NCBI RefSeq assembly: GCF_006345805.1
Contig: NC_043004.1
Location: 7,750,001 to 7,814,000, forward strand
Reading direction: 5' to 3'
Length of the DNA: 64,000 bases
From: Octopus sinensis
Lineage: Eukaryota
The position numbers and the translations under genes are program-made. Under the pieces are notes generated by a model. The model ran no database searches. It was not told the origin of the DNA and worked only from the letters and a program-made list of their open reading frames with translations. Below are positions 25,878 through 29,736 of the stretch, in pieces; within the stretch, counting starts at the first letter, position 1; every line of letters starts with the position of its first letter.

Positions 25878-26093
25878 AATGCGCTGCCTTTCTATGTAAG
25901 ATCTTCGCAATCTGTTATGCAATGACAGCTGGTCACGGACATGTAGGAACCAGGTGAGTCCACAAAAGTTCCGAAACGAAGAGAATATTGGTAAAAATTT
26001 GGTATTAGTTGTAAATGATTGAAGATTAGATTTCACACTTCCCAGATGCAAAAGTATATCTGGAAATTCCATAATTGGACCATCAAATTCTTT
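25878..26093 (-). CDS. CPLANE1: CPLANE1 coding exon 17
   Basis: atatag|KEFDGPIMEFPDILL...FRNFCGLTWFLHVRDQLS...QRI|gtaagt; phase 0 to 0. Confidence 0.92.
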
Positions 26094-26911
26094 CTATATA
26101 AAATGAAAATGGAAAAAATAGAGAGAATATGGTTAAAAAATTTCCAGCACTTTCTACAATGGATACGTTTTTTTTTTATAATTAAAAGTCATTCTAAGAC
26201 AATCACATCATCAAAATCTCAAAGTAACATGTTAACACAAGATTGACTGGCTCCTGTGCCGATGGCACTCAAAAGGCACTGTTTGAGCATGGTTGTTGCC
26301 AGTGCCACATAAAAAGCACCCATTACACTCTCTGAGTGGTTGGCATTAGGAAGGGCATCAAGCTGTAGAAACCTTACCAGATCAGATTGGAGCCTGGTGC
26401 AGCCTCCTGGCTTGCCAGTCCTCAGTCAAACCGTCCAACCCATGCCAGCATGGAAAGCAGATGTTAAACAATGATGATGATGATGATAATAATCTTCTGT
26501 CACCAATACTTTTTGGGTAAAATTTCGGTGAAAATTTTCGAAAAGTCTTTGGGGAAATTTTCGGCAAAAATTTTTGAGTAAAATTTTCGGTGAAAATATT
26601 CGGTAAATTTCCGAAAAATTTTTGGGGAGAATTTTCAGTGGAACTCTTCGAAAAGTTTTGGGGGAAAATTAACGGCAAAAAGTTTTGGGTAAAATTTCGG
26701 TGAAAATTTTCAAAAAATCTTTGGAGAAAATTAACGGCAAAAAGTTTTGGGTAAAATTTTCGAAAAATTTTTGGTGAAAATTTTCGGTAAATTTTCGAAA
26801 AATTTTTGGGGAGAATTTTCGGCAAAAATTTTCAAAATATTTTTGGGAAAATTTTTGGTGAAAATTTTGGAAAAATTTTTGGGTAAAATTTTTGGGGAAA
26901 ATTTTCGAAAA

Positions 26912-27113
26912 CCCATATAACGAATATGCTCCATATGCTGAAGTCTATAAAAGTCGATATCGTCATAGTTGTTAAGTGTAAGGCAGAATCTGGTGTATCG
27001 GGGATGGTGAGGCATCTTGACTGTAATATTAAACCAGAATTCACTCTATACACAGAAAAAAGCAGCAAGAGCTACATAAAAATCTATTTTTAGCCATAAC
27101 ATCTATTTTTAGC
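26912..27113 (-). mobile_element. Endogenous CRESS-DNA-virus-like ori plus Rep N-terminal fragment, copy 1
   Basis: ATG at 27015: MPHHPRYTRFCLTLNNYDDIDFYRLQHMEHIRYMGF; TAATATTAC at 27031-27023; repeated ATCTATTTTTAGC at 27082 and 27101. Confidence 0.75.
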
Positions 27114-27378
27114 TTGGGTAAAATTTTCCACAAATTTTTGGGTAAAATTTTCGTAAAATTTTTGTGGAAAATTTTCGTAAAAGTTTTGGGTAAAATTTCG
27201 GTGAAAATTTTCGAAAAATCTTTGAGGAAAATTTTCGGCAAAAATTTTTGGCTAAAATTTTCGGTGAAAATTTTCGGTAAATTTTCGAAAAATTTTTGGG
27301 AAAAATTTTTGGGTAGAATTTTCGGTGAAAATTTTGGAAAAATTTTTGGGTAAAATTTTCGGTGAAAATTTTCGAAAA

Positions 27379-27581
27379 CCCATATAACGAATATGCTCCA
27401 TATGCTGAAGTCTATAAAAGTCGATATCGTCATAAGTTGTTAAGTGTAAAGCAGAATCTGGTGTATCGGGTATGGTGAGGCATCTTGACTGTAATATTAA
27501 ACCAGAATTCACTCTATACACAGAAAGCAGCAGCAAGAGCTACATAAAAATCTATTTTTAGCCATAACATCTATTTTTAGC
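27379..27581 (-). mobile_element. CRESS-like ori/Rep fragment, copy 2 (frameshifted)
   Basis: ATG at 27483: MPHHTRYTRFCFTLNNL* (+1 insertion); nonamer at 27499-27491. Confidence 0.75.
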
Positions 27582-27858
27582 TCGGATAAAATTTTTCGAA
27601 AAATTTTTTGGTACAATTTTCAGTGGAACTCTTCGAAAAGTTTTTGTGGAAAATTTTCGTAAAAGTTTTGGGTAAAATTTCGGTGAAAATTTTCGAAAAA
27701 TCTTTGGGGAAAATTTTCGGCAAAAATTTTTGGCTAAAATTTTCGGTAAATTTTCGAAAAATTTTTAGGAAAAATTTTTGGGAAAAATTTTCGGTAAATT
27801 TTCGAAAAATTTTTGGGTAGAATTTTCGGTGAAAATTTTGGGTAAAATTATTCGAAAA

Positions 27859-28148
27859 ATCACAAGGCCAGCAGTGCCAAAATCACAAAGTATAGAAGGC
27901 CAGCGGTGCCAAAATCAAAAAGTATGGAAAGCCAGCGGTGCCAAAATCAAAAAGTATAGAAAGCCAGCGGTGCCAAAATCAAAAAGTATGGAAAGCCAGC
28001 TGTGCCAAAATCAAAAAGTATGGAAGGCCAGCGGTGCCAAAATTAAAAAGTATGGAAGGCCAGCGGTGCCAAAATCAAAAAGTATGGAAGGCCAGCGGTG
28101 CCAAAATCACAAAGTATGGAAGGCCATAATTTGTGATTTTGGCAGCGC
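27859..28148. repeat. 32-bp minisatellite (gaaggccagcggtgccaaaatcaaaaagtatg) x about 8.5, ending in an inverted unit
   Basis: gtgcc recurs every 32 nt from 27874 to 28098; 28130-28148 is the reverse complement of the unit (18/19). Confidence 0.95.
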
Positions 28149-28907
28149 TAAAATTTTTAGGTAAAATTTTTTGGTGCAATTTTCAGTGGAACTCTTCGAA
28201 AAGGTTTTGCGGAAAATTTTCGTAAAATTTTTAGGTAAAATTTCTGTGAAAATTTTCGAAAAATCTTTGGGGAAAATTTTTGGGGAAAGTTTTCTATGAA
28301 AATTCTCGAAAAGTTTTTGGTGAAAATATTTGGTGAAAATTTTCGAAAAATTTTTGGGTAAAATTTTCGGTGAAAACTTTCAAAAGATTTTTGGGTAAAA
28401 TTTTCGAAAAATTTTTGGGGAAAATTTTCGCTAAAATTTTCAGTGAAAACTGGAAAATTTTCCGTGAAAATTTTCGAAAAGTTTTTGGAGAAAACTTTTG
28501 GTGAAAATTTTCGGAAAATTATTTGGTAAAATTTTCAGTGAAACTCTTCCAAAAATTTCTGCGGAAAATTTTCGAAAAATTTTTGGGGAAAATTTTCGTA
28601 AAATTTTTGGTTAAAATTTTCGAAAAATCTTTAGGGAAAATTTTCGAAAAATTTTTTGGTACAATTTTCAGTGGAACTCTTCGAAAAGTTTTTGGAGAAA
28701 ATTTTCGTAAAATTTTTAGGTAAAATTTCTGTGAAAATTTTCGAAAAATCTTTGGGGAAAATTTTCGGCAAAAATTTTTGGTGAAAATTTTCGAAAAATT
28801 TTTGGAGAGAAGTTTCGGCAAAAATTTTCAAAAAATTTTTGGGAAAATTTTCGGTGAAAATTTTGGAAAAATTTTTGGGTAAAATTTTCGGGGAAAATTT
28901 TCGAAAA

Positions 28908-29079
28908 CCCATATGCTGAAGTCTATATCGTTATAGTTGTTAAGTGTAAAGCAGAATCTGGTGTATCGGGGATGGTGAGGCATCTTGACTGTAATATTAA
29001 ACCAGAATTCACTCTATACACAGAAAGCAGCAGCAAGAGCTACATAAAAATCTATTTTTAGCCATAACATCTATTTTTA
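28908..29079 (-). mobile_element. CRESS-like ori/Rep fragment, copy 3 (two internal deletions)
   Basis: ATG at 28983: MPHHPRYTRFCFTLNNYNDIDF...; nonamer at 28999-28991; 10 and 18 nt deletions. Confidence 0.72.
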
Positions 29080-29556
29080 TTTCGGGTAAAATTTTCGAAA
29101 AATTTTTGGTACAATTTTCGAAAACTTTTTGCGTAAAATTTTCGAAAAATTTTTGAAAAATTTTTGGGTAAAATTTTCGGTGAAAACTTTCGAAAAATTT
29201 TCACCAAATATTTTCACCAAAAACTTTTAGAAAATTTTCATGGAAAACTTTCCCCAAAAATTTTTGGAAAATTTTCGCCGAAAATTTTCCCCAAAACTTT
29301 TCCCAAAAATTTCACCAAAAATTTTCAAAAAATTTCACCGAAAATTTTCCACAAAAATTTTTCGAAAATTTTAAACAAAAATGTTTAGAAAATTTTCGCT
29401 GATAATTTTCCCCGAAAATTTTCCCAAAAATTTTTCCAAAATTTTCATCGAAATTGGTACAATTTTCAGTGTCATTACCTGAAGCGTTCTCATGTCAAAG
29501 TAATTAAGAAATATAAAAATAATTTATAGGGTTAAATGACAGGTAACTAAACTTAC

Positions 29557-29736
29557 TCCAAATTTATTTGCAGATCTCTTGGAGACTGTCATCAGTTGCT
29601 GAATATACCATTGTGCCAATGGCAGAGACAATTTGGCTCCTTGAAGAACAATCAGTATAAGACGTATCAAAACTGAAGTCTTATGTCTCAGTTCCTTCTC
29701 TTGGATTAAAGCAGCAGACTTTATTGCTGAATCATT
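29557..29736 (-). CDS. CPLANE1: CPLANE1 coding exon 16
   Basis: tcctag|NDSAIKSAALIQEKELRHKTSVLIRLILIVLQGAKLSLPLAQWYIQQL...KFG|gtaagt; 180 nt, phase 0 to 0; missed by the ORF track. Confidence 0.9.

Follow-up and report, generated by a model that had tools for sequence, protein, structure and literature searches.

The window, a stretch of 64,000 nucleotides from Octopus sinensis (contig NC_043004.1, positions 7,750,001 to 7,814,000 of the forward strand), contains a compound array of 2.9 kb at 26510..29450, made of a 12-13-bp AAAATTTT satellite, three copies of a core repeat and one 32-bp block. Nearly all AAAATTTT words of the window (99/106) fall inside these limits, and the polarity of the satellite is reversed over the final ~350 bp of the array. 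The core unit is about 200 bp long (26912-27112) and consists of a leader and codons 1-34 of a fossil CRESS-virus Rep N-terminus. In copy 1, these codons occupy 26914..27015 on the minus strand with the ATG at 27015 and encode the peptide MPHHPRYTRFCLTLNNYDDIDFYRLQHMEHIRYM, in which the motif I position (residues 12-16; 26968..26982, minus strand) reads LTLNN; FTLNN is found in 69 of 106 copies that span the ORF. The non-coding leader of copy 1, which comprises about 97 nt 5' of the ATG (27016..27112, minus strand), has a TATA-like word near 27044-27053 and the nonamer TAATATTAC at 27023-27031. Copy 2 (27379..27580, minus strand; ATG at 27483) is 2% different from copy 1 and has a one-base frameshift immediately past motif I, while copy 3 (28906..29079, minus strand; ATG at 28983) has lost 28 nt in total from its Rep part. 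An earlier note on this DNA had described LTLNN in copy 1, FTLNN in copies 2 and 3, and a 94-aa chimeric ORF running from copy 1 in frame into satellite; all of this proved correct, and the reading frame of copy 1 continues past codon 34 into satellite to give an ORF at 26731-27015 (minus strand). Its statement that the three copies stop at the same point holds for the DNA junction, which is common to them, but not for the protein, as not all of the copies encode 34 residues.

The second passenger of the array is the 32-bp minisatellite block (27864..28126, plus strand; 8.2 copies), which also occurs in arrays that have no core and, apart from these, in a dispersed segment. On either side of the array lies a likely host exon with AG/GTAAGT ends and one open frame (25878..26059 and 29557..29736, both predicted on the minus strand), and the array is thus likely intronic, between two exons of a minus-strand host gene. 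A large multi-exon gene at 9855-52000 (minus strand) spans the array. We take some of its exons to resemble CPLANE1/C5orf42, an identity for which our searches gave no confirmation.

The earlier note had also read the fragment as the N-terminus of a CRESS-virus Rep with motif I, and this reading is supported by an endogenous Rep on contig C3 of the same assembly (C3 Rep), by hits in a global protein search and by a Rep profile. As in CRESS Reps, motif I lies near the N-terminus. The window peptide is identical to the N-terminus of C3 Rep at 21 of 34 residues (62%; E = 1e-15 pairwise and 3.7e-8 in the genome), and C3 Rep scores 82.5 bits on Viral_Rep, above the cut-off; a Viral_Rep search gave 2 matches among 12 candidates in this genome and none in 14 control genomes. 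When 1.84 billion proteins were searched exhaustively with the window peptide, 4 hits were returned, and the best two share the N-terminus of the peptide (76% and 57%); the second-best (P0100) is above the Viral_Rep cut-off and the best has no Pfam match, while the other two, P0101 and P0102, are tandem-repeat proteins and were discounted as artefacts. A Rep profile gave the peptide 21.0 bits compared to 6.6 bits for the best of 1000 shuffles; it was built from 75 environmental Reps, which were left of the 87 hits of a C3 Rep search after dropping 7 octopus-like sequences and 5 without a motif-I word, a selection that favours motif I. Homology to Viral_Rep is in this way indirect, through C3 Rep, P0100 and the profile, since the direct Pfam scan proposed earlier gave no match for the 34-aa peptide at E ≤ 10; a PDB search with the window peptides likewise gave no Rep match.

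Comparison of the window element with C3 Rep revealed pN = 0.234 and pS = 0.852, with 12, 5 and 18 differences at codon positions 1, 2 and 3, respectively, which demonstrates past purifying selection relative to the C3 endogenous Rep. Such a difference between pN and pS is the mark of two coding viral lineages and indicates that the window element goes back to a virus of its own, related to that of the C3 fossil, and is not a copy of this fossil. We regard it as practically certain that the fragment is a real piece of a CRESS Rep. By sequence similarity, it stands closest to other endogenous Reps of the octopus type. When a close free-living virus was sought, a single distant contig (41%) turned up in IMG/VR and no match among metagenome contigs. 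A peptide of 34 amino acids is too short to assign the source virus to the circoviruses or the nanoviruses. The motifs of a functional CRESS Rep beyond motif I (motifs II and III and the SF3 helicase) are absent from the fragment.

C3 Rep belongs to an endogenous CRESS virus (L031, G000:C3:47237488-47240733) with a 272-aa Rep frame containing motifs I-III and Walker A/B, which stops early in the helicase. A same-strand Arg-rich ORF resembling Circo_capsid (score 0.95) adjoins C3 Rep, and a perfect palindrome of ~60 nt lies upstream. The best PDB match of C3 Rep is 2hw0 ('Replicase', E = 2e-14), which we take to be from porcine circovirus 2, followed by 2hwt (E = 1e-6), presumably from a nanovirus. 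The nearest named virus is Dragonfly larvae associated circular virus-10, whose Rep is 41% identical over 96% of the length; the similarity searches do not place C3 Rep in a family.

The three copies that the earlier note saw in the window are indeed there, but the feature is not local and copies occur genome-wide. In the 2.72-Gb animal assembly, the core gave at least 60 DNA matches (40 of 165 candidates scored) and the Rep peptide at least 151 at the protein level (150 of 221 scored), C3 Rep itself among them. By hand count, the core occupies at least 35 loci, of which 10 large contigs contain 29 and small contigs the other 6, and 236 whole or partial core hits were found in 40 of the 42 stretches examined. 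The arrays, whose structure comes from one assembly in which misassembly could contribute, measure ~1-12 kb and are mosaics of satellite, core and 32-bp block with internal inversions, within which the polarity of the core relative to the satellite is fixed. Among copies that reach the Rep end, the AAAATTTT satellite comes next in 181/186, while the remaining 5 continue into a short piece of satellite or some other part of a repeat. Rep sequence past codon 35 (residues 36-272, including motif II) was found in none of the 42 stretches, consistent with the earlier claim that the copies are cut before motif II and encode no nuclease. In sequencing runs with three further organism labels (B, C and D), 102, 159 and 126 contigs, respectively, match the core; at the Rep/satellite junction, the loose ends listed for these runs are satellite as well. 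A longer parent copy running into motif II was found neither in the stretches nor among these loose ends, and no founding locus emerged. The 181 copies and the satellite loose ends in B, C and D suggest that the junction is single and predates the split of those organisms. The mean distance was 0.129 between loci and 0.105 within loci, and only 55 of 112 copies had their nearest neighbour within their own locus, which fits exchange between loci. The core has the features of an endogenous viral element: it lies on contigs of up to 213 Mb, between likely exons, is decaying, and recurs in B, C and D.

To describe the decay of the family, we drew from 193 hits the 106 copies that span the ORF. The ATG and frame are kept in 57, whereas a frameshift is present in 14, stops occur in 24 and the ATG is missing from 21, these classes overlapping. 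Diversity in the same 106 copies was 0.111, 0.099 and 0.099 at codon positions 1, 2 and 3, respectively, and pN/pS was 0.83 in the Rep frame compared to 0.91 and 0.74 in the other two frames. The copies therefore evolve neutrally, and the 94-aa chimeric ORF is incidental because of this. The ORF part is less variable than the leader (0.103 versus 0.164), which counts against the explanation that we favour below and could be attributed to the microsatellite-like nature of the leader. That the fragment is non-coding and goes back to one capture is, in our judgement, very probable. One run presumed to be RNA, its type being guessed, had a single contig on the core at depth 2, which speaks neither for nor against expression.

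An exact satellite 38-mer occurs 44 times in the genome (reversed control, 0), at 33 loci by hand count, of which 10 are known core loci. In 20 of the remaining loci, selected for having no known core, we found the core in none and the 32-bp block in 6; the core is absent from satellite locus C886 as well. A common terminal sequence was found in none of 19 arrays, and 48 flank pairs, with array edges set by eye, showed no regular target-site duplication. Clear flank duplications were seen in only about 5 of the 48 pairs, which also counts against the favoured explanation; they comprise a 756-bp direct duplication at L096/L097, inverted duplications of 213 bp at L132 and 321 bp at L142, a 519-bp direct duplication (88%) at L146 and, at L139:1880-4770, a host piece of ~200 bp re-copied between satellite blocks. 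The architecture of L139 is the same as that of the Rep arrays, with a non-viral passenger. The AAAATTTT satellite is thus dispersed without the core and without defined ends, and it re-copies neighbouring host DNA.

The best explanation overall, and one we consider probable, is that the Rep fossil spread as a passenger of the satellite to at least 35 loci. The core-less satellite, the lack of termini and the parallel of L139 together point to a Rep fossil that was captured by a satellite patch next to it, re-copied locally and then spread. In the proposed route, a CRESS virus of octopuses would have integrated in the germ line, and a satellite patch would then have been placed at Rep codon 35. 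Adjoining DNA of ~200 bp could next have been re-copied locally, as a host piece was at L139, to give [satellite-core]n arrays, pieces of which may have reached new sites through recombination or template switching at palindromic satellite units, the enzyme route being hypothetical. This last step possibly passed through extrachromosomal circles and would leave ragged ends, inversions and occasional flank duplications. A TIR element (127-bp TIR) lies directly 5' of the core at 3 single-copy loci; together with a SINE-ended segment that carries the 32-bp block, it suggests that transposons contributed at some loci. A variant in which AAAATTTT is a terminus-less mobile satellite that inserts into chromosomes and multiplies the DNA next to it, in which it captured the promoter and 5' end of Rep, and in which the host kept the arrays as a small-RNA memory against the virus lineage, seems to us rather improbable.

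Several other explanations were weighed against spread as a satellite passenger. The arrays could descend from defective viral DNA or a non-autonomous HUH element, amplified in trans by Rep through rolling circle and repeatedly integrated, in a genome that does contain many CRESS fossils. The nonamer TAATATTAC, which this explanation would take as the viral origin, lies directly 5' of the ATG in the window copies but is a minority variant, present in 15/106 copies versus 39/106 with TACTACTAC. The copies of the TAATATTAC type (17/120 copies, 7/27 loci) form a young group (p 0.061), yet one that appears nested in the midpoint-rooted tree. The TAATATTAC region folds with only -0.2 kcal/mol, 198 of 200 shuffles being equally good, and forms no stem-loop, unlike the origin of a CRESS fossil on contig C16 (-11.5 kcal/mol; z = -3.75). 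Two truncations stop at positions 88-89, beside the would-be Rep nick, but breakpoints are otherwise scattered, and the putative nick coincides with just 2 of 24 distinct 3' ends and with none of 35 5' ends, chance alone predicting ~1 of the 3' ends there. A comparison of leaders with those of the C3, C14 and C16 fossils was not significant for the window copy, and for the L038 copy the counts were 14 and 5 of 1000 shuffles. We rejected TAATATTAC as a viral origin on these grounds (minority variant, nested, no stem-loop, scattered breakpoints), and as unit lengths are irregular and inversions occur inside arrays, amplification by Rep in trans is quite unlikely.

It is also unlikely that the arrays are the cargo of a conventional transposon, whether a Helentron/Helitron, a MITE or a LINE-driven retrocopy. 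Satellite-like arrays of oyster are described as riding on Helentrons (PMC10048060), but most of the octopus core arrays start and stop within satellite with unrelated flanks, and neither the shared termini nor the target signature of Helitrons/Helentrons, MITEs or Replitrons were seen in the 19 arrays and 48 flank pairs described above. The 32-bp block does sit in a ~2-kb SINE-ended segment, found in part in the satellite-bearing arrays L116 and L125. The 127-bp-TIR element that adjoins the core at 3 loci has 2579 candidates and was rejected as the carrier, since the core lies outside the TIRs and is present at only 3 of 20 mapped loci, all three of them known before. A role for the host, which would have kept the fragment either to make antiviral small RNA directed at CRESS viruses of octopuses or to encode a micropeptide, might account for the high summed depth in the runs of the three other organism labels, the short ORF left intact in more than half of the copies and the TATA-like word upstream. 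The neutral codon pattern argues against a peptide, and the satellite carries non-viral passengers in the same manner, making such a role very unlikely. Finally, the possibility that a non-viral repeat resembles Rep motif I by accident, which the peptide's own lack of a Pfam or PDB match might suggest, is contradicted by the identity with C3 Rep, the profile score, the global hits and the synonymous excess, and can be considered extremely remote.

The GRD (geminivirus-related DNA) repeats of Nicotiana are the closest known case; GRD2, GRD3 and GRD5 are described in PMC5014472 and PMC3095596 as a truncated rep with an origin, in clustered repeats that evolve neutrally. The octopus core likewise is a degenerate, truncated CRESS rep in clustered copies, neutral after integration and common to related hosts. 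It differs in its animal host, its non-geminivirus Rep, of which only 34 codons are present here, and its interleaving with a host satellite that is dispersed alone. According to these papers, GRD occurs in few clusters and carries a v-ori-like sequence, whereas the octopus core occupies at least 35 loci on at least 10 large contigs in both orientations and has no origin stem-loop. The truncated rep in clustered repeats is thus there, but a nonanucleotide in a stem-loop is not, and the core was for this reason not classed as GRD-type defective DNA.

Endogenous Reps of animals and fungi, according to PMC3198968, usually number fewer than 10 and at most ~60 copies per genome, and arose as separate integrations or with a TIR transposon. 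The octopus copies are likewise germ-line fossils, mostly truncated and decayed, but unlike the cases covered there they number more than 200, whole or partial, and share one junction. They also resemble the dispersed short satellite arrays of PMC10048060 in forming short euchromatic arrays at many loci, but show no Helentron-type ends and have one viral building block. Like Replitrons (PMC10288648), they are eukaryotic sequences present in many copies and akin to a Rep HUH endonuclease, although the octopus core has no transposase, short direct terminal repeats or defined ends. The wider CRESS families are treated in PMC6668415. In a mainly open-access literature, including the available portions of PMC9615429 and one supplement, neither CRESS fossils of octopuses nor the AAAATTTT satellite were found described. 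One O. vulgaris ORF already carries the UniRef label 'Replication associated protein'. A genome-wide screen by Zhao, Lavington and Duffy in 2021, cited in PMC9615429, may list octopus Reps.

Together, these results suggest that the core repeat likely records an old octopus CRESS virus whose DNA is now part of a satellite. The core is an unusually amplified animal CRESS fossil, neither a new enzyme or system nor a gene. Through it, octopuses become likely hosts of a lineage of circular ssDNA viruses whose relatives are for the most part environmental sequences without a name. It also parallels, in an animal, the GRD repeats of tobacco, with a higher copy number and a wider spread. How satellite DNA captures other sequence and moves between chromosomes is an open question in satellite biology, and because it has one junction and a known origin, the viral tag can serve as a tracer for both processes.

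The genome contains further CRESS fossils and repeats. At L046/L056 (G000:C16:4799474-4803998), two copies of an origin stem-loop, one of them with TAGTATTAC, enclose an ambisense CRESS fossil of 2141 nt. The Rep of this fossil is internally deleted, but the helicase half lies in a 354-aa open frame that shares 95.3% identity over 301 aa with Octopus vulgaris CAI9733846.1. The insertion is likely orthologous, and the helicase ORF has possibly been retained. Loci L045-L057 comprise 9 helicase-like and 4 capsid-like CRESS matches, and the annotations of O. vulgaris and O. bimaculoides include related ORFs for the helicase half. A frameshifted Rep nuclease fragment at L032 (G000:C14:52359198-52362443) lies inside an ISXO2/IS1595-like transposase ORF, the transposase match (Pfam E 0.001) falling short of the cut-off. 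The TIR element mentioned above (L044:4268-4650 and relatives) is abundant and non-autonomous, with TIRs of ~127 bp, and is often found beside TA runs. The ~2-kb dispersed segment with the 32-bp minisatellite was seen at L114, L116, L120, L122, L123 and L124; it has a SINE at its constant end and a variable far end, as in truncated retrocopies. At L038:1-3102, a single core with short satellite lies between Penelope-like and CR1/L2-like RT fragments (labelled by eye), and this core is in frame with the CR1/L2-like fragment, within a 560-aa frame.
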